A stretch of 30,751 nt of DNA from a bacterium (GTDB lineage Bacteria > Hydrothermota > 32-111): positions 1-30,751 of the forward strand of contig JBFXGO010000031.1 in assembly GCA_050239825.1 (NCBI GenBank). Reading direction: 5' to 3'. The notes below the pieces were generated by a model. It searched no databases, was not told the origin of the DNA, and saw nothing but the letters and a program-made list of their open reading frames with translations. Both the position numbers and the translations under genes were made by a program. Below are positions 536 through 14,448 of this stretch, piece by piece (within the stretch, counting starts at the first letter, position 1; every line of letters starts with the position of its first letter).

Positions 536-553
536 AAAAAACATAGATTTGGT

Positions 554-582
554 AGTATATATACTTTTTTTTGATTTGTCAA
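554..582 (-). promoter_or_regulatory. Sigma70 promoter of the tRNA-tuf operon
   Basis: TTGACA (582-577), 17-nt spacer, TATACT (559-554), about 18 nt upstream of the first tRNA. Confidence 0.85.
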
Positions 583-637
583 GGGGTAATTAGTATAAAA
601 TTAGTGTGAATTGTTTAATAAAGGACAATATTTTTGC

Positions 638-669
638 TTCATTAAGAAAAGCTCGCTTTTCTTAATGAA
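638..669. repeat. Perfect 15-bp inverted repeat
   Basis: TTCATTAAGAAAAGC-TC-GCTTTTCTTAATGAA. Confidence 0.8.
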
Positions 670-930
670 CATTATACTACTTCTCTCAGCTCATGTTAAG
701 TGGACTCAGTATAATAGTTCACGCTCTTCTCATTCGCCTCTTCCTACATTAATGGTTATTGGCAAAATAAAAGTCAACCGCTAATTTGATAGTTTTTCTT
801 TGAATGAGAGTTGATTTTAAACCTCACTTCTTTAATTGTTTGTGAGGCTTTATCAATCTCATATCTCACATATAATTTTTCTTTGACAATGTCCCATTCT
901 GCCAGAACAAAGTAGTTTATATATGATGAC

Positions 931-1282
931 GGGAGTATAATAAAAGTTGTGTAAAATCAATAGGAGTGGAATATAATAAGATTAACGAGAAGGAGAATAA
1001 AAAAGGTTTGGAGAGAGTCTGCAGACTCTCTCCAAAAAGCGAACAAAAACTTTTACATGGAGGAACCCAATGAACCCTAAAGAGTCCCTACCGAAAGATA
1101 TTATAGCTGACATTAATGAATTAAGCAACAGTTCTTTGCGGTTGTTATTGGAGGAGATATTGAACCGAATAATGAAGAGTGAGCGAGAGATATATCTGTC
1201 AAGTAATGATGATTATGCTAATGGGTATATTGAACGGGGACTTGGAACACCTCGGGGAAAAAAGAGAGAGGGCGGCTTTTAA
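931..1282 (+). mobile_element. Truncated IS256-family element (left end and transposase N-terminus)
   Basis: End-like GGGAGTATAATAAAAGTTGTGTAAA at 931. ORF 1070-1282 (SD GGAGG) has the IS256/Mutator N-terminal pattern LLEEILNRIMKSER..YL...NGY..R.LGTPRG, then breaks off at about 1255. Confidence 0.75.
1007..1036. repeat. Perfect 30-bp palindrome upstream of the transposase stub
   Basis: TTTGGAGAGAGTCTG|CAGACTCTCTCCAAA. Confidence 0.9.
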
Positions 1283-1298
1283 ACTTAAACCGCCCTCT
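1257..1298 (-). terminator. Intrinsic terminator of the LVIVD gene
   Basis: Stem AGAGGGCGG/CCGCCCTCT (1267-1275, 1290-1298) followed by a T-run on the minus strand, about 40 nt after the stop at 1335. Confidence 0.7.
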
Positions 1299-1334
1299 GC
1301 GGGAAAACTGTTTTCTCTTTTACCTTATTGTGTT

Positions 1335-3134
1335 CTACCTTATTATCACCATCTTTCTGTTTATCTGTCTCTCTCCATCTCTGAATCTTATGAAGTATAT
1401 GCCTGATGAAAGGTGTTCTGTTGAGTAGCTGTGCTGACCTATCCTTCTCTCTTTCGCTCTATATACTTCCTTGCCATTTATATCATATACAGAAAATTTG
1501 TTATCCCCTGTTGAATTTGTATACCTTATTTCATTCTGTAGTATATCCATCTTATGATTCTCTTTATCTTGCTTCTCTTCAACAAACTTTTCTGTTACTC
1601 CCATAAAAGGATCAAACTCTAAAATACATAATGCGCTATAATCAGCAACATAGGCATAATCTCCTGAGATATAGACACCCAATGCATAACTCGGTGTATC
1701 ATAGATACCTTTAAGGGTTGGGCTTTTCGGATTTGAGATATCTATTATCTGTAAACCATCATAATAATCAGCAACATAGGCATAATCTCCTGAAACATAG
1801 ACACCATAAGCATAACCCGGTGTATCATAGCTCCCTGCAAGGGTTGGGCTTGAAGGATTTGAGATATCTATTATCTGTAAACCAGAATTACCATCAGTAA
1901 CATAGGCATAACTGCCTGAGACATAGACATCATCAGCATAATCCGGTGTATCATAGCTCCCTGCAAGGGTTGGGCTTGAAGGATTTGAGATATCTATTAT
2001 CTGTAAACCAGAATCAGCATCAGCAACATAGGCATAATCTCCTGAAACATAAACACCCCTTGCATAACCCGGTGTATCATAGCTACCTTTAAGGGTTGGG
2101 CTTGAAGGATTTGAGATATCTATTATCTGTAAACCAGAATCCTCATCAGCAACATAGGCATAACTGCCTGAAACATAGACACCCAATGCATAACCCGGTG
2201 TATCATAGCTACCTTTAAGTGTTGGGCTTGTGGGGTCAGAGATATCTACTATCTGTAAACCAGAACTTTCATCAGCAACATAGGCATAACTGCCTGAAAC
2301 ATAGACACCCTCAGCATAATCCGGTGTATCATAGCTACCTTTAAGAGTTGGGCTTGAAGGATTTGAGATATCTATTATCTGTAAACCAGAACTACCATCA
2401 GCAACATAGGCATAACTGCCTGAGACAAAGACATCCAATGCATAACCAGGTGTATCATAGCTACCTTTAAGGGTTGGGCTTGAAGGATTTGAGATATCTA
2501 TTATCTGTAAACCATCATAATAATCAGCAACATAGGCATAATCTCCTGAAACATAGACACCCCTTGCACGACCCGGTGTATCATAGCTCCCTGCAAGGGT
2601 TGGGCTTGAAGGATTTGAGATATCTATTATCTGTAAACCATCAAAATAATCAGCAACATAGGCATAATCTCCTGAAACATAGACACCCTCAGCACTCCCC
2701 GGTGTATCATAGCTCCCTTTAAGGGTTGGGCTTGAAGGATTTGAGATATCTATTATCTGTAAACCATAATCATAATCAGCAACATACGCATAACTGCCTG
2801 AAACATAGACACCCCATGCATAATCCGGTAAACTGAAATAACTTACCAAAAAAGGATTTGCTTTGTCCTTAACATTTAACACTACTAAATAATTACTCAT
2901 ACAAGAATATGCTAATGTATCTACGATGAAAACATTATATGCACTTCCAAAGAAAGGATAAATTCCTACTCCCCTTACATTCAAACTATCTGTCGCCCAG
3001 TTGGGTTGATTGTAATCTTCAGGTTGTTCAAAGTTAGCAAGAAGCATATCCTCTTCTCTGAATGGTCTCTCATTTGAAGCAAAAACAAACAATGCTGAAA
3101 CAATAATAATGATAATGAAAATAACTTTTTTCAC
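1335..3134 (-). CDS. Secreted LVIVD-repeat beta-propeller protein with T9SS-type C-terminal sorting domain
   Basis: Signal peptide MKKVIFIIIIIVSALFVFA. Ten 42-aa units (VYVSG[SD]YAYVAD...GLQIIDISNPSSPTL[KA]GSYDTP) plus one degenerate unit. C-terminus FSVYDINGKEV...LSSGIYFIRF...KMVIIR. GTG start with SD GGAGG. Confidence 0.88.
   Translation of the reverse strand: MKKVIFIIIIIVSALFVFASNERPFREEDMLLANFEQPEDYNQPNWATDSLNVRGVGIYPFFGSAYNVFIVDTLAYSCMSNYLVVLNVKDKANPFLVSYFSLPDYAWGVYVSGSYAYVADYDYGLQIIDISNPSSPTLKGSYDTPGSAEGVYVSGDYAYVADYFDGLQIIDISNPSSPTLAGSYDTPGRARGVYVSGDYAYVADYYDGLQIIDISNPSSPTLKGSYDTPGYALDVFVSGSYAYVADGSSGLQIIDISNPSSPTLKGSYDTPDYAEGVYVSGSYAYVADESSGLQIVDISDPTSPTLKGSYDTPGYALGVYVSGSYAYVADEDSGLQIIDISNPSSPTLKGSYDTPGYARGVYVSGDYAYVADADSGLQIIDISNPSSPTLAGSYDTPDYADDVYVSGSYAYVTDGNSGLQIIDISNPSSPTLAGSYDTPGYAYGVYVSGDYAYVADYYDGLQIIDISNPKSPTLKGIYDTPSYALGVYISGDYAYVADYSALCILEFDPFMGVTEKFVEEKQDKENHKMDILQNEIRYTNSTGDNKFSVYDINGKEVYRAKERRIGQHSYSTEHLSSGIYFIRFRDGERQINRKMVIIR
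1640..2828 (-). repeat. 126-bp coding tandem repeat, about 9.5 near-identical units
   Basis: GGTGTATCATAG recurs exactly at 1693, 1819, 1945, 2071, 2197, 2323, 2449, 2575 and 2701. Confidence 0.97.
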
Positions 3135-3212
3135 AATTCCTCCTGTATGAATTGTATAAATACTCCTTCTAATTTCTTTTTCAAAACCATCTCCTTTTTA
3201 TTAATCATTTCA

Positions 3213-3241
3213 ATCTTATTGTATTGCGCCCACTTTGTCAA
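3213..3241 (-). promoter_or_regulatory. Sigma70 promoter for the LVIVD gene
   Basis: TTGACA (3241-3236), 17 nt, TAAGAT (3218-3213). Confidence 0.6.
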
Positions 3242-3365
3242 GAAGTTTGCATAATAGTATTGTAATGGTCAGGTGTATATTTAACACCGTACTTTGCGAT
3301 AGCAAAAGGGCGGATTCTTCCAATCCGAAGATATCCTCTTCATAAACATTTATATCCGTTACCTA

Positions 3366-3638
3366 GATAATGGCTCTCTTGTCAAGACACAAGATTTTGA
3401 TAAATTGTGTTTATTGTTAAGCTGTTTGAGCATTCGTAATATCTCCATAAACTTCAGATGGAGTTTTGTATTTTAATGATTGAGACCCTCTTTTATATTT
3501 TTTAATATCAACCTCACTTATTGCCTACAGCGCCGCTCTCGCCTTGAATCCTGATTCGTGTCTCTTGTAGTCCATTTCTGCCTCCTTTTTTAACACATTC
3601 TATCATTAAATCGTGTCCTATTTCAAGAGACCATTATA
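3366..3638 (-). mobile_element. Internally deleted IS3-family element (MITE-like remnant)
   Basis: Imperfect terminal IRs GATAATGGCTCTCTTGTCAAGACAC and TATAATGGTCTCTTGAAATAGGACAC. OrfA start at 3575 with SD GGAGG, MDYKRHESGFKARAAL*AISE. OrfB tail RGSQSLKYKTPSEVY ending at 3417. Confidence 0.8.
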
Positions 3639-3691
3639 AAAGCACTGTTATAATCACAATAAAAACTCGTTTAAACACAGTTTCTCATATT

Positions 3692-4063
3692 TCAATATAT
3701 AAGATATATCAATAGAAATGCAAACATTGCTACACTTAAGGGTGTCAATACTATTACTTGCCACTTCATTTTTGTAGATTCCCATGAGAGTGATTTGTAT
3801 TTTTTGTTGAATCCTTCTTTGAAGCTTAATGAGCTATCTGGGAATAACTCCTTTGCATTCATTTCCTTGACCGTAGTTGTGAGAATACAAGATTTTAACG
3901 GAAATTGATATTTGTCATAAAACATTTTATATGCCGCTATTTCCCCTTTCGACATCTCTATTAAGTTTACTTCGTCAATATTTTCATTTTCATCATTTCC
4001 GAAAACAAGTAAGCTTGACATTATGAGCATTAAGATTAATGTAAATTTAAATATTTGTTTCAT
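3692..4063 (-). CDS. Hypothetical exported/membrane protein (N-terminal signal, C-terminal TM)
   Basis: Likely start MKQIFKFTLILMLIMSSLLVFG at 4063, 1 nt after the upstream stop (track start 4105 overlaps the upstream gene). Hydrophobic C-terminus. Confidence 0.6.
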   Translation of the reverse strand: MKQIFKFTLILMLIMSSLLVFGNDENENIDEVNLIEMSKGEIAAYKMFYDKYQFPLKSCILTTTVKEMNAKELFPDSSLSFKEGFNKKYKSLSWESTKMKWQVIVLTPLSVAMFAFLLIYLIY

Positions 4064-4064
4064 A

Positions 4065-4619
4065 TTACCCATTAGAAAGTGTGAATAACACAATAACCGA
4101 TACAATCACAAAAGATAACGCACTGCCGGCGCATGATACATTTTTCATCATATTTTTATATGACTTTAATTTATTATATTTGATAATATCAAATTCGCTG
4201 TCAGTTGGAATTTCACTTATATCATAACTTGAATACAATTCGGAAATACTCTCGGAATTTGTTCCAGTTATGAAAGCTACTGCAATTAGGTGCAAAATAA
4301 TTGCTAAAGAGATTACTGAATACATACCCATAATCAAAATACAACTGTCTGAAGTAGAATAAAATGCCAGCATAGCAATCACAAATGATATATACGTAAA
4401 TACCGCTGTTACAGGAATTAATCCCAGATTAACTAAAATACCATGTAAAAATGAATAGGAAAATACGTTCATAATGTCATCGGTTTTACTTACACTTTGT
4501 ACATCTTGAGTTTTGTTTTCAATTTCACTCTTTTTTGAATTTTTCTCAGATATTTCACCAGCAAACATATTCAATACAACAATTAGGATAATTATGACGC
4601 AGAGAATCTTTTTTAACAT
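4065..4619 (-). CDS. Hypothetical membrane protein (signal peptide plus about 3 TM segments)
   Basis: MLKKILCVIIILIVVLNMFA followed by several hydrophobic stretches. No family recognised. Confidence 0.6.
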   Translation of the reverse strand: MLKKILCVIIILIVVLNMFAGEISEKNSKKSEIENKTQDVQSVSKTDDIMNVFSYSFLHGILVNLGLIPVTAVFTYISFVIAMLAFYSTSDSCILIMGMYSVISLAIILHLIAVAFITGTNSESISELYSSYDISEIPTDSEFDIIKYNKLKSYKNMMKNVSCAGSALSFVIVSVIVLFTLSNG

Positions 4620-4811
4620 CCTTATCTCAGCTTTTCTATTGATTTATGGCTTGATTCACTTTTTCCCATTCATCCCAACTTTTATTTAAATATTTATTAT
4701 ATTTCAATAATTTAAATCAAAATTAATCTTACTAAATCTATTCTTTTTTGTCAATACTTAATTGGTTGTTGGTATTGTTTTAATCATTTTACAATCAAAT
4801 AATGGTCTTTT

Positions 4812-4918
4812 TTTCTTCAACTATCAACTTTCTTTTACCAGCTCACCAGCGTACCAGTCTACTAGCCTACTCTTTTTCTTTCTTCAACTATCAACTTTCT
4901 TTTACCAGCTTACCAGCG
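4812..4918. repeat. 40-bp direct repeat (period 67) built from 7-8-nt subrepeats
   Basis: TTTCTTCAACTATCAACTTTCTTTTACCAGCT[C/T]ACCAGCG at 4812-4851 and 4879-4918. Subunits CAACT.. and ACCAG[CT]. Confidence 0.85.
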
Positions 4919-4932
4919 CACTAATTCCCTGT

Positions 4933-8125: not shown

Positions 8126-11008
8126 TCAGTCTATCGGATTTTTATTAAAAACTTCTGAAATTAAATCAGCCATTCTAGTGTTACTAAACTGTGTTCTAAA
8201 TTCAATTTTTACTCTACCTTTAAAGAATTCCTCTGCATGTCTGATTTTCGATATTTCCTCTGTTCTCAAACCAATCTCATTATCTACATTCTTGGTTTCA
8301 ATAATGAAATGCAATTTCTTCTCTCCATCCTTATATTTTAATACATATGCAAAATCAGGAGAATAGCTTTTACCTCCTGCCACAGGAATCTTTATTGAGT
8401 TTTTCGGAATTTTTGTGAAGACAATTACTTCGTCAATTTCAGTCATAATATTCTTCTTTTCCAACTCCGAATCAAAATACAATTCTTCATACAAATATTT
8501 TTGATTTACAGCTTCATTTGAAAAGAAAACGCCTACATCAGATGAAGATATCTCCTGTAAGACATTTCCTTCTGCATCAGTCAGTTTAGTAGGATGGATA
8601 TTATTTGAGACCCTTTTATATTCTATACTGAACTTATCAATAGCATTTTTCATTAAATAGTCGTCAAAATTTTGCTTTAATATTCTTACAGTTGTCGAAT
8701 TTAGATATTCATTTATACCAATTTTAGAATCTATGATTGCCTGATGAATCGTCTTTAAATTTATATTTAACAGCTTTGATAGTTCTTTTAGTAAGTCGCT
8801 GTATTTCATTGTTGATATTTTTTTAGTACTTTTGCTATAAACGGATTCGGAATCTTGTACAAAAGCATTGTTTTCTTGCACAACAATCTGCTCAACTCTT
8901 TCCCGTATTCCATCATTTGTTAATAAACTCTTCTGCCCTTCTAAAAACTCTGTTAGAAGATTTTTAAAAGCATTTTCATTTTCAAATTTATATTCCAATA
9001 TTGCTTTTTCACTTAATGTCTCCCATAGTTCTTTCAATTCCAAATATTTCTCGCTTCTTACTTTAACTTTTTTTCTGTTATCAGTCGCCTTGCGAATCTT
9101 GTTTGCATTTACTCCATCAAACACTCTTGGGTAATTATTCTTGATATATGCGAAACCGCCATCTATAAAACGGTGAGTCGGTTTTATTATATTTTTTCTT
9201 ATAAGGTCATCTATTAAATCATCCTCTTTGATTTCGTAAATTTCACAAATTTTCTCAATCATTTCCTCGGAAATTTTTTCCGGTTCTTGCTCCGCAGCCA
9301 CAATGCCGGATTTTTGATTTATTTCCTCGACCAATTTCTCTATAAAATCACTTTCGGTGAAATCAACATAGTAGTTTAAATAAAACTGCTCATCCTTTAC
9401 TCGATTTCCATATTCATTTACCGGAAGTCTTAACCCTCTGCCGACTTCCTGTAATTTAGATATTTCACTACCGCTGCTTCTCAATTTACAAATCTGAAAA
9501 ACATTCGGATTATCCCATCCTTCTCTCAAAGTCCATTTGGAAAAAATGAAACGCCTTGGGTTTTCCAAATCAAGAATAGCCTGTTTGTCATGCAATATTT
9601 CATTAAGTTCTTTTTCGATAGTTTCATCTTTTTCTTCATTGTCCTGCGAAAAATATCCCGCATGAGTTCCTGATATATTTTTATATGTCTTCTCTAACAA
9701 AGATTTATAGTTCGGGTCAGTCTCTGTTTTTAATAATTCACTGACTTCCGCACCCACATATTTCTCCAAAGTTTTTCTAATGTAACCATCCATATTTCTA
9801 TATTCTTCTATGTTGTCAATAAAAAATAGTGTGAGTGGTTTTATTTTTACTTCTCTTTTTAAGAGTTTCCTTTCTATTTCAAAATGATTCTTTATCGTCT
9901 TTTGAATCATTATTTCTTGTAGAGTTTCTGCGTAAGAGTATGGATTGATTTTCTCTCCTTTTCTCATTTCCAATCCATTTGAAAGAACAGCTATGCTCTT
10001 ATTCAGTTTTTCGAGAGTTAAATCTGTCATCACTGAATGAACTTTATTAAAACTTTCATTTTTTACAAGTGTTACCCTCTTTCTTTCATTATTCTCTATG
10101 AGCTCAAAAAAAGCCTCAGTCCCATCTGAATCAACAAATCTCACTAAGGCATTCTTGCCTGCATCAAATTCAGTAATATGCCCTATCACTCCTTTAACCA
10201 AATTTCTGTTGAATGAATCAACAGCAGATAAGGAGTAAACTATGTTTTCATATTCCTGAAAAGTAGCGCCATACCTCAAAATGAATTGTGAATTCATTTT
10301 TTTTATATTCTCCCAAGTTTTTTTATCCTTAGCATACTTATGAGGTTCATCAATAATCGTAAATGGTTTAACAGCGGCAATTGCATCAAAAGGTATTGAG
10401 TATTTGTCAAAGAGGCTTTTATCAAAACTCTTCTGCATAGTATCGGAATTTATCATCCCGGCATTGATAATCATCACTTGAATAGTCTTCTTATCGTGAT
10501 TCTCCGCAGTTACGAAACTTGAAATGGATGTAGGAATATAACTCTTTTTACTCTTATTGTTCTTTTGACTCTCTACAATATGAAGCTTAATCGTCTTATT
10601 ATATTGCTCCTTGAAATGCTCCCGGCAACTGTCAGATTTGAGAAAATCTATTGTCCCTGCTTTTATGGAGAGCGTTGGAACAACAACAATAAATTTGAAA
10701 ATTCCATACAACTTATTTATTTCATAGATAGTTTTAGTATATGTGTATGTTTTTCCTGTTCCTGTTTCCATCATGATATCAATTATGTGGCTGTTTCTTT
10801 TGATTGGCTCTTTTAATCCGTTTTCCTTCTGAATTTTTGATAAATTTTGTGCATATTGCCTGTCATTTAAATAATCGAATACCGGGTTTATATACTTCTT
10901 ATCTGTTTCCGGAGGATAAATCATTTCAATATTTTCAAAAACTGCAGTTGCGCTTTCCACTGCTTGTTTCTGATGCAACAGGTCCTTTTCAAAATTAAAT
11001 GCTTTCAT
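8126..11008 (-). CDS. res: Type III restriction endonuclease Res subunit (EcoP15I/EcoPI-like)
   Basis: METGTGKT (Walker A), IIDEPH, LREGWDNPNVFQIC, QEVGRGLRL, C-terminal nuclease YSPDFAY...IIETK. Confidence 0.95.
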   Translation of the reverse strand: MKAFNFEKDLLHQKQAVESATAVFENIEMIYPPETDKKYINPVFDYLNDRQYAQNLSKIQKENGLKEPIKRNSHIIDIMMETGTGKTYTYTKTIYEINKLYGIFKFIVVVPTLSIKAGTIDFLKSDSCREHFKEQYNKTIKLHIVESQKNNKSKKSYIPTSISSFVTAENHDKKTIQVMIINAGMINSDTMQKSFDKSLFDKYSIPFDAIAAVKPFTIIDEPHKYAKDKKTWENIKKMNSQFILRYGATFQEYENIVYSLSAVDSFNRNLVKGVIGHITEFDAGKNALVRFVDSDGTEAFFELIENNERKRVTLVKNESFNKVHSVMTDLTLEKLNKSIAVLSNGLEMRKGEKINPYSYAETLQEIMIQKTIKNHFEIERKLLKREVKIKPLTLFFIDNIEEYRNMDGYIRKTLEKYVGAEVSELLKTETDPNYKSLLEKTYKNISGTHAGYFSQDNEEKDETIEKELNEILHDKQAILDLENPRRFIFSKWTLREGWDNPNVFQICKLRSSGSEISKLQEVGRGLRLPVNEYGNRVKDEQFYLNYYVDFTESDFIEKLVEEINQKSGIVAAEQEPEKISEEMIEKICEIYEIKEDDLIDDLIRKNIIKPTHRFIDGGFAYIKNNYPRVFDGVNANKIRKATDNRKKVKVRSEKYLELKELWETLSEKAILEYKFENENAFKNLLTEFLEGQKSLLTNDGIRERVEQIVVQENNAFVQDSESVYSKSTKKISTMKYSDLLKELSKLLNINLKTIHQAIIDSKIGINEYLNSTTVRILKQNFDDYLMKNAIDKFSIEYKRVSNNIHPTKLTDAEGNVLQEISSSDVGVFFSNEAVNQKYLYEELYFDSELEKKNIMTEIDEVIVFTKIPKNSIKIPVAGGKSYSPDFAYVLKYKDGEKKLHFIIETKNVDNEIGLRTEEISKIRHAEEFFKGRVKIEFRTQFSNTRMADLISEVFNKNPID

Positions 11009-11009
11009 G

Positions 11010-12341
11010 TTATTTAATCGTTTTTAATATTTTTTTACCATCAGAGGTCAATCTGTATTTTTGCTTACTACTCTTTGGTTTATCAGGAATTGTTAATTCA
11101 ATTATTCCTTCTTTTAATGCAGGATAAAGATAATTCTCATTAAAATTCTTTTTATCTTTCAAACCTAATTTCTTCTGTATTTCTATTCTTGAAAGTTCCC
11201 CTTCTAAAATCATCACAAGCATTTCGACTTGGGGGGTAACTTGGGGGGTAACTTGGGGGGTAACTTGGGGGGTAACTTGTAAAGAATTGAAAATAACGCG
11301 AGTAAAATTTTCGCTGAAAGTAAAGCATTCTCTTCCATAGGATTCTAATATTCTAGGTATGCCTGAACCCAATTGCTCAACAAGCTCTAAATCTTTAAAT
11401 ATCCTCATAAGCTCTTTATTTCTCGGCACTGAAAATCCTTCAAAAAACTCATCTCTACTTAATCCCTCAGGTAAAGAACCTGCTGAAGTGATTTCTATTC
11501 GGTTTGGGAAAATCTCTATTTTAGGCATACTCTCCCTTGAATAGTCATTGTGCACAATCGCATTCAGAATTGCCTCTCTTAATGCAATGGCATTCCATCG
11601 TCGTTTCTCGGCTCTTTCTTTTGAAGTAATCTTAACAGATGTGTTATTTTCAATTTCAATTTTCTCAAGAATCTGCTTTGTTGCTTTGACTAAAGAGCAA
11701 TAACCATACTCATTGTTTTCTATTAGATCGGTTCGTGTTTCCGATGCATATTTTGCAAATTTTATTGATACATTGTTTTCATCAGCCAACAGATAAGCAA
11801 CATAGTTAAATTCATTGTTCTGCGTCAATAATTCTAAGTTAGTTCTAAAGCTCTTATTTAGTGTCTTCTTCCTTTCATTATAATAGATATGCAATTGTTC
11901 AAAAGTCAAATTTTGACGAGGTGATTTGATTTTTCCTATCGAATTTCGCGTTCGCGATGAAAATAGTTCATCTATCATTTTTTGAGACATCGGTTCAGCA
12001 GCATTTCCTATCCTTATAAAACATCCTTTTTCAGTCATTCCATATTTCCTCTTAAAATATGGCTTCTCGCTTCCCCCGGCGATTATAATTTCAATGACAT
12101 TCTCCTCATCCGAAATAACATCAAAGAGCCCTAAAGAAGAGGGCATAATATTGTTTTTAATTCGGTCCTTGATTTTTAAAATATCGCTATCAATTTCTTT
12201 TACTCCCACTTTTTTCCCTTCATTGTCTATACCTATGAAAATCCTACCACCTTCCGGAGTATTCAGAAAGGATATCACTTCTTTCTCCAAATCCATTTTT
12301 TCATTTAATTCTCTTTTATATTCTATTCTATTTGATTCCAT
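11010..12341 (-). CDS. Schlafen/AlbA_2 domain, HATPase_c_4 (RecG-C-like) domain and C-terminal HTH protein
   Basis: ESNRIEYKRE and FLNTPEGGRIFIGID (AlbA_2). REAILNAIVHNDY...RNKEL..VEQLGSGI (HATPase_c_4). (QVTP)n linker. LTIPDKPKSSKQKYRLT HTH tail. Confidence 0.85.
   Translation of the reverse strand: MESNRIEYKRELNEKMDLEKEVISFLNTPEGGRIFIGIDNEGKKVGVKEIDSDILKIKDRIKNNIMPSSLGLFDVISDEENVIEIIIAGGSEKPYFKRKYGMTEKGCFIRIGNAAEPMSQKMIDELFSSRTRNSIGKIKSPRQNLTFEQLHIYYNERKKTLNKSFRTNLELLTQNNEFNYVAYLLADENNVSIKFAKYASETRTDLIENNEYGYCSLVKATKQILEKIEIENNTSVKITSKERAEKRRWNAIALREAILNAIVHNDYSRESMPKIEIFPNRIEITSAGSLPEGLSRDEFFEGFSVPRNKELMRIFKDLELVEQLGSGIPRILESYGRECFTFSENFTRVIFNSLQVTPQVTPQVTPQVTPQVEMLVMILEGELSRIEIQKKLGLKDKKNFNENYLYPALKEGIIELTIPDKPKSSKQKYRLTSDGKKILKTIK
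11227..11279 (-). repeat. 12-bp coding tandem repeat, about 4.4 copies (QVTP)
   Basis: ACTTGGGGGGTA at 11227, 11239, 11251 and 11263, plus ACTTG. Confidence 0.95.
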
Positions 12342-12345
12342 CTGG

Positions 12346-14364
12346 CTAATACCTTATTACAAATTCAATGTCAATATGCTTTTTATTCGCATAGGATTTT
12401 ATGTTCTCCGAAAGTTCTCTTAGATTTTTACTATCAAAATGATATCCGAAAGCGATAATCGATTTTGGATTAAAGGTCTTATCAGAATCAATTTTTAACA
12501 ATAGTTGCTTAAGATTTTCTGTAGTAAAACCTTTATGCATGAGGTATAATTTCTCATTTCCATAATTGGCAGTATATCCATCCAGATTAATACTTTTTAA
12601 ATATACTGTCAACGGTATATTGTCATAAGTTTTCCAGGTAGTAAGAAGAGCATTGATGTCATCCTCGGTTAATTTGCTTTCATCAAATAAGTTTTTATCG
12701 TCTAATTCATCCGCTTCAAAGGTATAATTCTCCCAAATTGGTATGGTTTCATATATCTTGAATCCAAGATCTTGCTCTTTGAGTGCATTAATCTCGCCTT
12801 TAAGTTGTTGGATTTTCTGTTCTTTATCTTCTAAATCCAATTTACTTTCAATGTCTTTAATTTCTCTTTGTTTTTCGTTTATCTTCTTATCAATTATTTC
12901 TCCCTTTATTTTTTTAGCAGATCTAATAAGACGCTCTTTTGTGATTTCAAATATTGTTGGTTCTGTTTTTAGTTCGTCTTTTACAAAATCATAGGCTGTT
13001 TTACTCTTTTTAGGGTCAATTAGCTCTGGAAGTTGAACTAAAATATATTGCCTTTGTCCACCATCCTCTGCATTTAATTGCATAACGGCGTCTCCTGTAG
13101 TCCCTGAACCCGAAAAATAATCGAGGATAAAACCATTAGACTCAACTGAAAAGCTCATAAGCTTCTTTAAAAGTTTTACTGGTTTCGGTGTATCAAACAC
13201 CTTATTACCATCAAACAATGATAGTATCTCTTTTACTGCATCAGTTGTTGTTCCGTATTCAGTAAATATAGTTCTGATTTTTATAATCTTTCTTTCTTCT
13301 TCAATTTCGTCGAAATAGATAACTTCATAAGGAGTTAATCTATTTTTCCTGTCTTTTTGCCAATATAAATGCTCTTTATCTAGACATTCTGGTTTTTTTC
13401 TCCAGCATCCTTCTTTTCCATTGGGAGCAACAGGATAAAACTCTTTTCCTTTGGGATCAAGTATAGCGTAGTATAAAGTAGGTCTGTCGGTTCTCAATGA
13501 ATGATTTCCCCATTTTTCCAATTTAACTAATTTTGCTGCTCTTGAATTTATATTTTTACTAAATTCTTCTTCCTCAAAATCTTTAGTCTCATCAATTATT
13601 TTCCAATTATTTTTTGTATAAATCAAAATATATTCATGTTCTTTAGCCAAATCTTGAGAATCTTGACTTCCCCCCTTCTTTTTTTGCCATATAATTTGCT
13701 GCAGAAAATTCTCTTCCCCAAATATATCATCCATCAACAATCTCAGTTGAGCAACCTCATTGTCATCAATGGAAATAAAAATTGCTCCATCATCTTTTAG
13801 CAATTGTTTGGCAATATAAAGTCGTGGATACATAAATGTTAGCCAAGCTGAGTGACTATTGCTTTTGCTACGAGTAAAATCCAAAATGCGTTTCGCTTTT
13901 TCTTCATTAAGACCTGATAGTTGTTGAAATTCCTCTACTGTGAATTTTCTATCATCCTGATAAACAAACCCATCAGTCCCTGTGTTGTAGGGCGGGTCTA
14001 TGTATATCATTTTAATCTTCTCATAGTAAGCATTAACTAAATGCTTAAGCACTTCTAAATTGTCGCCTTTTATCAATAGATTTTGAGACTCTTTATTAAC
14101 TTCTTTCTTATTATGTTTTTCATCCTCTTTTAATAGTGTTGTAGCTGAGTCACTAGCCAATAAACGCGCGTAAGATTTACCAAGCCATTCAAGACCGTAA
14201 CTTTCCGTAGAAAAATTGAATTCTTTTGTTTGAAGGTGTTTTTGAAATTTATCTATTAAAAATTTGCCGTTTTTATCAAAGCATTGTGGAAACATCTTCT
14301 GAAGCATCATAAAATCATTATTTATTACTTTAATGTTGTTTGTTATCTTCTGTTCTTTATCCAT
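12346..14364 (-). CDS. mod: Type III R-M Mod subunit (N6-adenine methyltransferase, beta class)
   Basis: GDNLEVLK, IYIDPPYNTG, HSAWLTFMYPRL, FDTPKP, DYFSGSGTT. Start revised to ATG 14364 behind SD GGAGG. Confidence 0.95.
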   Translation of the reverse strand: MDKEQKITNNIKVINNDFMMLQKMFPQCFDKNGKFLIDKFQKHLQTKEFNFSTESYGLEWLGKSYARLLASDSATTLLKEDEKHNKKEVNKESQNLLIKGDNLEVLKHLVNAYYEKIKMIYIDPPYNTGTDGFVYQDDRKFTVEEFQQLSGLNEEKAKRILDFTRSKSNSHSAWLTFMYPRLYIAKQLLKDDGAIFISIDDNEVAQLRLLMDDIFGEENFLQQIIWQKKKGGSQDSQDLAKEHEYILIYTKNNWKIIDETKDFEEEEFSKNINSRAAKLVKLEKWGNHSLRTDRPTLYYAILDPKGKEFYPVAPNGKEGCWRKKPECLDKEHLYWQKDRKNRLTPYEVIYFDEIEEERKIIKIRTIFTEYGTTTDAVKEILSLFDGNKVFDTPKPVKLLKKLMSFSVESNGFILDYFSGSGTTGDAVMQLNAEDGGQRQYILVQLPELIDPKKSKTAYDFVKDELKTEPTIFEITKERLIRSAKKIKGEIIDKKINEKQREIKDIESKLDLEDKEQKIQQLKGEINALKEQDLGFKIYETIPIWENYTFEADELDDKNLFDESKLTEDDINALLTTWKTYDNIPLTVYLKSINLDGYTANYGNEKLYLMHKGFTTENLKQLLLKIDSDKTFNPKSIIAFGYHFDSKNLRELSENIKSYANKKHIDIEFVIRY

Positions 14365-14448
14365 TAATCCTCCTGTCAAGAAATCACATTATTTAGAATT
14401 ATTAAAGACTTCATTTTTTTTATTTGCATACTTCATAGTTTAAATTTA

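Follow-up and report, generated by a model that had tools for sequence, protein, structure and literature searches.

We analysed a window of 30,751 nucleotides from a bacterium of the lineage Hydrothermota; 32-111 (assembly GCA_050239825.1, contig JBFXGO010000031.1, positions 1 to 30,751 of the forward strand), in which a minus-strand gene at 1335..3134 encodes a 599-residue beta-propeller protein of LVIVD repeats. The gene belongs to a family of seven paralogs whose 126-bp blade units are homogenised and recombine with one another, and in which a few codons at fixed places of the blade are more diverse than synonymous sites. We read this pattern, with a probability of about 0.6, as concerted evolution combined with diversifying selection on a putative binding face, in which case the protein would be a secreted counterpart of the fungal HET-D/HET-E repeat arrays; we infer that it is binding on which this selection acts. 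Below, G000 denotes this genome, C-numbers denote its contigs, and the gene of the window lies on C55.

In the proposed mechanism, the gene would be one of seven paralogs for a surface protein exported by the type IX secretion system (T9SS), and unequal crossing-over together with gene conversion would hold the blades alike across the paralogs. In each blade, five codons that fall in the D-A and B-C loops on the top face would be kept different and rich in Tyr, Asp, Ser, Arg and Trp codons, so that each protein would display 7-14 different blade tips on one face. The likeliest role of such a face would be ligand binding of an adhesin- or lectin-like kind. The variety would be germ-line encoded, by many paralogs and the shuffling of units, with no mutator involved.

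Hypervariable codons of the blade array and their predicted position

Tandem Repeats Finder (TRF) reported a single array at 1638-2829 (period 126, 9.5 copies, 88% matches, 0% indels, score 1709), which is in frame with the minus-strand open reading frame (ORF) 1335..3134. The Pfam model of the LVIVD repeat, PF08309, matched ten stretches of the product (536.2 bits vs a cut-off of 20.2, E 2.2e-165), the NCBIfam model of choice-of-anchor B proteins, TIGR04312, scored 114.2 against a cut-off of 100, and the C-terminal sorting domain exceeded both of its curated cut-offs (PF18962 of Pfam, 36.1 bits vs 27; TIGR04183 of NCBIfam, 37.3 vs 23). On both counts, the repeat score and the predicted fold, the product is a member of the LVIVD family, and its sorting domain marks it as a predicted type A cargo of the T9SS. 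An initial annotation had described a 126-bp repeat array within a secreted-type beta-propeller, and these matches bear that description out. The search for the secretion machinery covered SprA-, PorV- and PorU-type genes, and a SprA-type translocon gene was found in the genome (summed 407.6 bits vs a cut-off of 200); the protein is putatively displayed on the cell surface. No NACHT, NB-ARC or effector domain appeared in the Pfam and NCBIfam scans, which returned only LVIVD, Beta_propel and the sorting domain, and a sequence search of the PDB gave 0 matches, i.e., no solved relative by sequence. LVIVD repeats are described in Adindla et al. 2004 (PMC2447325, accessible text) as 42-residue repeats of predicted bacterial and archaeal cell-surface proteins. 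Among the LVIVD papers listed, none concerns, by its title, blade-level homogenisation with hypervariable tips, and no function or solved structure of the family was found.

Units were numbered in the phase that places LQIIDIS at position 1. A hidden Markov model (HMM) built from the units of the C55 gene found 75 units in the seven genes, of which 66 are full 42-residue units; the other nine (five divergent and two partial first units, and two with indels) were left out. Among the 66 units the entropy exceeded 2.2 bits at five positions only, namely 23 and 25 in cluster A (2.29 and 2.57 bits, with an invariant Ala24 between them) and 39, 40 and 41 in cluster B (2.65, 2.45 and 2.24 bits). Variation was moderate at positions 22 and 26, and two or three states were found at 15 (A/T/K), 32 (S/D), 10 and 5/8. 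In the nine full units of the C55 gene the entropy peaks were at positions 25, 40, 39, 41 and 22. The ten cluster-A strings read from the sequence by the initial annotation were recovered exactly (DYAWG, GSAEG, GRARG, GYALD, DYAEG, GYALG, GYARG, DYADD, GYAYG and SYALG), as were those of cluster B (YDY, YFD, YYD, GSS, ESS, EDS, ADS, GNS and YYD), to which YSA can be added as the tenth. Its mosaic sharings hold as well (YYD in units 3 and 9, ARG in 3 and 7, AEG in 2 and 5, ALG in 6 and 10), and the GSY/GDY and LKG/LAG markers do not co-segregate: each of the four K/A x D/S combinations is represented in the nine full units.

When the 66 units were compared in pairs, the proportions of replacement and synonymous differences (pN/pS) were 0.425/0.262 for the seven cluster codons and 0.066/0.220 for the scaffold; in the C55 gene alone they were 0.449/0.172 and 0.058/0.159. 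The first- and second-position diversity of the five hypervariable codons was 0.542 vs 0.242 at 15 four-fold sites of the scaffold (Mann-Whitney p 5.8e-4), so that replacement diversity at these codons is 2.2 times that of four-fold sites, and first- and second-position diversity in the scaffold was 0.074. The C55 gene alone gave 0.578 vs 0.226. In 14 pairs of units with scaffolds at least 99% alike, the hypervariable codons still differed by 0.329 vs 0.030 at four-fold sites, the latter value being low partly by construction. By such pairwise measures the array would resemble HET-D/E-type sensors in carrying few hypervariable codons whose replacement diversity exceeds the synonymous one. The per-codon check called for by the initial annotation thus gave replacement above synonymous diversity (pN 0.449 vs a scaffold pS of 0.159 in C55). 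Its statement that scaffold codons are nearly identical even at synonymous sites stands only in part: these sites are far less variable than the hypervariable codons, but they are not identical (pS 0.159, four-fold diversity 0.226).

The composition of the 330 hypervariable residues is strongly skewed, with Tyr 34%, Asp 15%, Ser 13%, Arg 7.6% and Trp 4.8%, against genome backgrounds of 4.5, 5.7, 7.8, 4.3 and 0.7%, respectively. Variation that is limited to a few codons, many of them of the NNT type, would also be produced if a diversity-generating retroelement (DGR) or another mutator rewrote the variable codons, and one reverse transcriptase gene is present in the genome. However, this enzyme is Drt4/Drt3b-like (far below the cut-offs) and lies amid restriction-modification genes, the codons at position 25 (TAT, AGG, TGG, TTG and GAG) do not differ by adenine only, and recently shared units keep their variable codons, as in the 3′ halves of the paralogs on C17 and C9, which are 95-100% identical. 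We regard targeted mutagenesis as very improbable.

An AlphaFold2 model of the C55 protein built with 60 aligned homologues had a predicted local distance difference test score (pLDDT) of 91.4 and a predicted template modelling score (pTM) of 0.79. DSSP assigned 44 strands to it: an N-terminal strand comes first, ten blades of four strands follow, and the last blade has three, so that in the model blade 11 can be completed by the N-terminal strand. A unit consists, in order, of strand C (GLQIID), the loop NPSSP, strand D (TLKGSY), the loop TPG-x that holds cluster A, strand A (A-x-GVYVS), the loop G-S/D, strand B (YAYVAD) and the loop x-x-x of cluster B. Cluster A thus falls between strands E137-142 and E148-154 and cluster B between E157-162 and E166-171, and along the antiparallel meander each variable loop is followed by a conserved one (NPSSP or SG(S/D)). 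From one loop of an antiparallel blade to the next the face changes, so that clusters A and B would share one face and the conserved loops the other. The prediction that the two clusters are loops on one face is borne out by the model, in which A precedes strand A and B follows strand B, and the hypervariable residues are placed on a single propeller face by the strand topology of the model rather than by distances. In WD40 propellers the face made up of the D-A and B-C loops is by convention called the top, and it is there that binding usually takes place.

The model of the 14-blade paralog C53 (pLDDT 90.2, pTM 0.60) matched 7-bladed WD40-type propellers twice, with residues 342-636 (Z 38, root-mean-square deviation (rmsd) 1.4 Å) and with residues 41-343 (Z 34.9, rmsd 1.9 Å), and C53 is predicted to fold as two 7-bladed WD40-like propellers of 13 conserved repeats and one divergent repeat. 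Propellers also filled the list of structure matches of the C55 model, the best having Z 23.5 at an rmsd of 6.8 Å, and designed rings of 9 and 10 blades matched at 4.8-5.1 Å; no closed 7-blade match to this 11-blade model was found in the structure search. We read the C55 model as one large ring, and its count of 11 blades may be real or may reflect loss in the assembly.

Paralogs, unit exchange and related lineages

The genome is a 2.1-Mb draft of 67 contigs, and judged by RNase R its closest named relative is a WOR-3 metagenome-assembled genome (73% identity). It holds 114 LVIVD matches, the strong ones falling in seven genes, on C55, C33, C17, C9, C53, C50 and C29 (the one on C29 is truncated where its contig ends), which are alike in start, tail and repeat scaffold. 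All 66 full units are distinct at the nucleotide level, and they carry 58 combinations of clusters A and B. Blade counts range from 7 (C50) through 11 (C55) to 14 (C53), 14 being the modal number in this bacterial family. In three paralogs (C33, C50 and C29) a further Ig-like module (Big_13, about 250 residues) stands between propeller and sorting tail; their last 280 codons are 99.3% identical with a four-fold diversity of 0.006, and this long-linker tail represents a second, very recently shared end cassette. The search of the genome for the same 126-bp unit, which the initial annotation had suggested, yielded paralogs but no silent cassettes: units of at least about 52 bits lie almost exclusively in the seven genes, and none lacks a gene context except in C29 with its contig-end cut. 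The sole unit of that strength outside them (55.6 bits) belongs to a separate, diverged 338-residue LVIVD gene on C17. The initial annotation had ascribed the feature to a single gene; it belongs to seven, and it characterises the bacterial family as a whole.

In the paralog C50a (G000:C50:65958-67817) the closing N-terminal strand is fused straight to a repeat unit (VRGVGKYDTPG...), which leaves exactly seven blades, as expected of an in-register unequal crossover.

At the nucleotide level, the scaffolds of two units of this genome are 0.896 identical when both lie in one gene and 0.897 when they lie in different genes; the value drops to 0.754 against units of G001, a genome of the same genus, and to 0.55-0.74 against five other arrays of the bacterial family. 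The repeats are more alike within the genome than between related species, as in HET-D/E-type sensors. The scaffold consensus is specific to the lineage (LQII...PSSPTL.GSY here vs LRII...PASPTE.GYY in G001).

The claim of recombination among units was supported by the pairwise homoplasy index (PHI) test, in which 0 of 2000 permutations fell at or below the observed value (56 informative sites), and 374 of 666 scaffold-only site pairs were incompatible. Common to the paralogs are 235 bp before the gene and about 180 bp after it. Identity is 96.3% over their first 100 codons (four-fold diversity 0.032) and 97.8% over the last 90 codons of the short-linker group (0.065). The four-fold diversity of the arrays is 0.24 vs 0.006-0.065 in these 96-99% identical gene ends. 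Furthermore, the best match of a unit in another paralog lies at the same index for only 0-4 units per gene pair, with the exception of C17/C9, where it does so in 8-9 of 12 units. Either units have been re-dealt between the genes, or the ends have been homogenised while the diversity of the array was retained.

Six related arrays were examined, from six of the 13 genomes of the bacterial family that were searched. Positions 23, 25, 39, 40 and 41 are all among the seven most variable in G000, G001, G002, G006 and G013, and four of the five are so in G003 (without 41) and G005 (without 23). Hypervariable diversity exceeds four-fold diversity in all seven lineages, with p < 0.05 in four (G000, G001, G013 and G006). 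Tyr, Asp and Ser are among the four commonest hypervariable residues in 6/6 relatives, and Tyr is the commonest in five of them; in G003 it is fourth, with Gly and Asp leading.

In the phylum as a whole, 40 of 41 genomes searched contain LVIVD proteins. Of the best 120 database matches, a sample biased towards consensus-like arrays, 91 have at least five full units, and 9 of these (the query included) combine a scaffold amino-acid identity of at least 0.8 with low identity at the variable positions, cyanobacterial DUF4347 proteins being among them. The pattern of a homogenised scaffold with variable loops may thus be widespread in the LVIVD family. Four arrays from other phyla, P0100, P0040 (cyanobacterial DUF4347), P0018 and P0002, have scaffold amino-acid identities of 0.86-0.95 and vary at the same loop positions. 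Two further loci, L013 (G011:C10) and L014 (G013:C1), come from assemblies listed as separate species representatives yet are identical over 4,419 bases around a 1258-residue open frame with 13 homogenised units.

Strains of the organism itself were sought in several ways. An exact look-up of three paralog proteins in a protein collection found none, a search with the N-terminal 103 residues gave 52 candidates with 0 at E <= 1e-10, a scan of Joint Genome Institute (JGI) metagenomes with the N-terminus gave 561 pattern matches and 0 relatives, and an exact 45-nt scaffold string had 0 matches in metagenome contigs.

Several points weigh against diversifying selection on a binding face. The pN/pS values were obtained pairwise among units that exchange sequence, which is not a proper site model, and four-fold diversity may be lowered by codon bias. 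Throughout the LVIVD family, as judged from the alignment consensus, no positions are less conserved than these loop positions, so that part of the pattern would mark sites at which the fold permits change. In three of the seven lineages (G003, G002 and G005) the excess over four-fold sites falls short of significance. The colinear pair C17/C9 has 11 replacements in its 60 hypervariable codons vs 42 synonymous changes in 420 scaffold codons; hypervariable change per site is thus not above the synonymous rate, and gives no sign of fast ongoing change. As to export, the PorV-like gene scored 126.7 vs a cut-off of 250 and the PorU-like gene 257.7 vs 420. Finally, a single assembly of 67 contigs underlies both the unit order and the allocation of units to paralogs; chimeras in it would mimic the lost positional orthology and part of the recombination signal, and Illumina assemblies of fungal 126-bp WD40 arrays are described as unreliable in the accessible text of PMC12222747.

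Some of these points would also suit a history in which each lineage recently amplified its array from one blade and then duplicated the gene, the loops varying because they are unconstrained, with no selection and no repertoire. The low conservation of the variable positions across the family, the three lineages without a significant excess and the absence of an excess in C17/C9 all fit it, and in PMC9218822, as far as the accessible text goes, repetitive propellers with lineage-specific nucleotides and paralogs differing in blade number represent repeated independent amplifications. On the other hand, neutral loops should not exceed synonymous sites, and the 2.2-fold excess of replacement diversity, which still amounts to 0.33 where scaffolds are at least 99% alike, therefore speaks against relaxed loops. 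The loops are, moreover, skewed to Tyr, Asp, Ser, Arg and Trp, whereas Lys, Ile or Asn lead in 0/7 lineages, and Phe ranks as high as third or fourth in G002 and G005 alone (8-9%). Amplification followed by duplication predicts neither gene ends far younger than the arrays nor a scrambled unit order. We hold this history to be unlikely.

It is less likely still that the units are real while their order, their number (11 blades) and their distribution over the seven genes are partly chimeric. Besides the draft state of the genome, the contig end that cuts C29 and the experience with the fungal arrays, the 11 blades of C55 are odd against the modal 14, and the corresponding model lacks a closed 7-blade match. 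Contigs from five read runs offered none that spans the C55 array, the pieces there being 64-454 nt long; one of the runs held 0.70 of the sampled words, no RNA run was listed, and joints in run X3 are not multiples of 126 and were read as paralogs or relatives. The unit order that we infer for the arrays is accordingly that of the assembly. Against a chimeric origin, 66/66 units are distinct with 58 combinations of A and B, and the clusters are 39-66 nt apart, so that single reads would link neighbouring clusters. In addition, a relative carries its 13-unit array inside a contig of 1.39 Mb, and a second assembly, perhaps not an independent one, has the same sequence there over 4,419 bases. 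The unit-level results, i.e., variable positions, diversity and composition, are independent of the order.

The locus and its surroundings

The features of the gene and its flanks are collected in Table 1. The N-terminal strand and first-blade region is 96.3% identical across five paralogs. An alignment of four paralog upstream regions shows that the promoter-like site is kept and is followed by a leader and an AGGAGG ribosome-binding site. Around the promoter region a search for an invertible promoter found just weak AT-rich inverted repeats of up to 16 nt.

Table 1. Positions of features in and around the LVIVD gene of the window
Feature	Position	Strand	Basis and remarks
LVIVD beta-propeller gene, predicted T9SS cargo, 599 aa	1335..3134	-	GTG start; stop 1335-1337; ORF list, translation
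Signal-peptide-like hydrophobic N-terminus MKKVIFIIIIIVSALFVFAS, codons 1-20	3075..3134	-	judged by eye from translation; model helix residues 2-19
N-terminal closing strand (residues 53-59) and divergent first blade (residues 65-101)	2826..2987	-	DSSP of model
Homogenised 126-bp (42-codon) blade array, ten LVIVD units, nine full 42-aa, phase LQIIDIS	1638..2829	-	TRF, HMM-delimited units, per-codon statistics
Cluster A, unit positions 22-26, predicted D-A loop and start of strand A	1677..2825	-	ten copies: 2811-2825 minus 126k, k = 0..9
Cluster B, unit positions 39-41, predicted B-C loop after conserved Asp38	1632..2774	-	ten copies: 2766-2774 minus 126k, k = 0..9
Predicted T9SS type A C-terminal sorting domain, residues 529-599	1338..1550	-	PF18962 and TIGR04183 match residues 537-597; model beta-sandwich E529-597
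Low-confidence linker before sorting domain	1551-1613	-	pLDDT <50 at residues 515-525
Promoter-like TTGACA-17-TAAGAT	3213..3241	-	consensus scan, 10/12 matches; candidate only, a consensus match being no proof of function
235-bp upstream block common to paralogs	3135..3369	-	BLAST vs genome: homology with C53, C33, C9, C17, C50 begins here
Terminator-like hairpin, 12-bp stem and T run	1267..1298	-	37 nt past stop, within paralog-shared 3′ block 1152-1334
Dispersed intergenic repeat modules downstream of gene	747-930, 931-996, 1103-1261	.	BLAST vs genome: copies on many contigs
Dispersed intergenic repeat modules upstream of gene	3297-3369, 3366-3639	.	BLAST vs genome

In the same-genus genome G002 (L066, G002:C144) a tRNA cluster directly adjoins mutS2, whereas here the two are separated by 4.4 kb (window 536-4932), and this difference indicates that a paralog was inserted at a tRNA-flanked site. 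The 4.4-kb stretch contains the LVIVD gene, two small ORFs (3692-4105 and 4065-4619) and dispersed repeat modules; the small ORFs have hydrophobic N-termini, as in small membrane proteins, and no Pfam match. On contigs C24, C23, C18, C30 and C44 the modules 3297-3369 and 931-996 stand about 95 bp apart with no gene between them. Gene and promoter are thus flanked here by two modules that are adjacent elsewhere, which may represent a route by which the gene is copied to new sites.

The sole reverse transcriptase gene of the genome encodes 497 residues on the minus strand at 7698-9191 of L065 (G000:C17:26000-40000). As a candidate DGR or other retroelement it was rejected, since the enzyme is Drt-like and no template/variable repeat pair was found within 14 kb. 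It stands beside a MjaI-type restriction enzyme, a methylase-nuclease fusion and a diverged 329-residue LVIVD protein, and this neighbourhood is probably a defence island. Elsewhere in the window, a perfect 12-bp tandem repeat, ACTTGGGGGGTA x 4.4, lies at 11227-11279, in frame within a 443-residue ORF (11010-12341) of the Schlafen-AlbA_2/Fic-like_C type, which has res (8126-11008) on one side and mod (12346-14379) on the other, both belonging to a type III restriction-modification system; this repeat could vary in copy number.

Comparison with known systems and biological meaning

The closest known system is the WD40 array of HET-D and HET-E (the HNWD family) of Podospora anserina, which, in the accessible text of PMC12222747, has a 126-bp, 42-residue unit with more than 80% internal identity, which is attributed there to concerted evolution. 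The two systems have in common, as far as that text goes, the size of the unit, a few hypervariable codons on one face, the exchange of repeats between paralogs, a double 7-blade propeller (11 conserved and 3 cryptic repeats there vs 13 conserved and 1 divergent in C53) and the problem of short-read assembly. The likeness to HET-D/E drawn by the initial annotation is therefore apt, in the 126-bp unit as in the 14-blade double propeller; its observation was confirmed, save for the synonymous sites, and proved stronger than it had claimed, while its interpretation as a whole is partly supported. In contrast, the fungal proteins are intracellular NLR (STAND) receptors with WD40 repeats and the ligand HET-C, whereas here we are dealing with a putatively secreted bacterial LVIVD protein, a predicted T9SS cargo with no NACHT or effector domain, and with evidence from paralogs, not alleles. 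By analogy the gene would work like the HET-D/E sensor family, but it is not a member of it, as it is not an NLR/STAND protein.

Near-identical prokaryotic blades with lineage-specific nucleotides and paralogs variable in blade number are also known from WRAP of Nostoc punctiforme (PMC9218822). Synonymous differences are absent from WRAP, a mark of very recent amplification, and the accessible text reports no hypervariable-codon pattern for it and makes no mention of LVIVD. Unlike WRAP, the present arrays have a four-fold diversity of 0.24, one scaffold in seven genes and five codons above synonymous diversity. PDB entry 2ymu, grouped here with recently amplified WRAP-type propellers, was among the structure matches of C53. 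Compared with the LVIVD cell-surface proteins, of which it is one, the C55 gene product differs by homogenised blades with hypervariable tips, a combination not found among the titles listed for LVIVD. With the targets of DGRs, e.g., TvpA (PMC7159879), it shares a bacterial origin and variation focused on a putative ligand-binding surface; according to the accessible text, those systems rely on a reverse transcriptase, a template repeat and adenine mutagenesis, and their targets have a C-type-lectin or FGS fold, whereas such elements were not found here. The LVIVD gene falls outside this class, with no repeat pair and with variable codons that are not adenine-specific.

A further step, which we put forward tentatively and consider possible but doubtful, is that the family constitutes an extracellular, germ-line recognition repertoire, in which seven secreted double propellers would present more than 60 different Tyr/Asp/Ser-coded tips, continually re-dealt between the paralogs by recombination in invariant scaffold stretches of 36-45 nt, with the gene ends remaining identical; it would be a prokaryotic equivalent, outside the cell, of the fungal HET WD40 sensors. 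The design recurs in the examined relatives within the bacterial family and in cyanobacterial LVIVD proteins. If this is true, the repertoire would bind changing targets, e.g., partner or prey cells, particles or phages.

Such arrays may be just what short-read metagenome assemblies get wrong, and in this respect the present family is a warning case. In practical terms, it offers a natural and very regular scaffold with an antibody-like Tyr/Ser/Asp code for the engineering of binders. Homogenised propeller repeats with selected hypervariable face residues have so far been a hallmark of fungal intracellular receptors of immunity and allorecognition. If concerted evolution with selection on a binding face is the correct reading, this route to binding diversity would be general and would also work outside the cell, here in seven genes of a 2.1-Mb genome from an uncultured phylum. 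The design was seen in all six related arrays examined from the bacterial family, and the unstudied LVIVD family would thereby gain a functional surface that can be tested.

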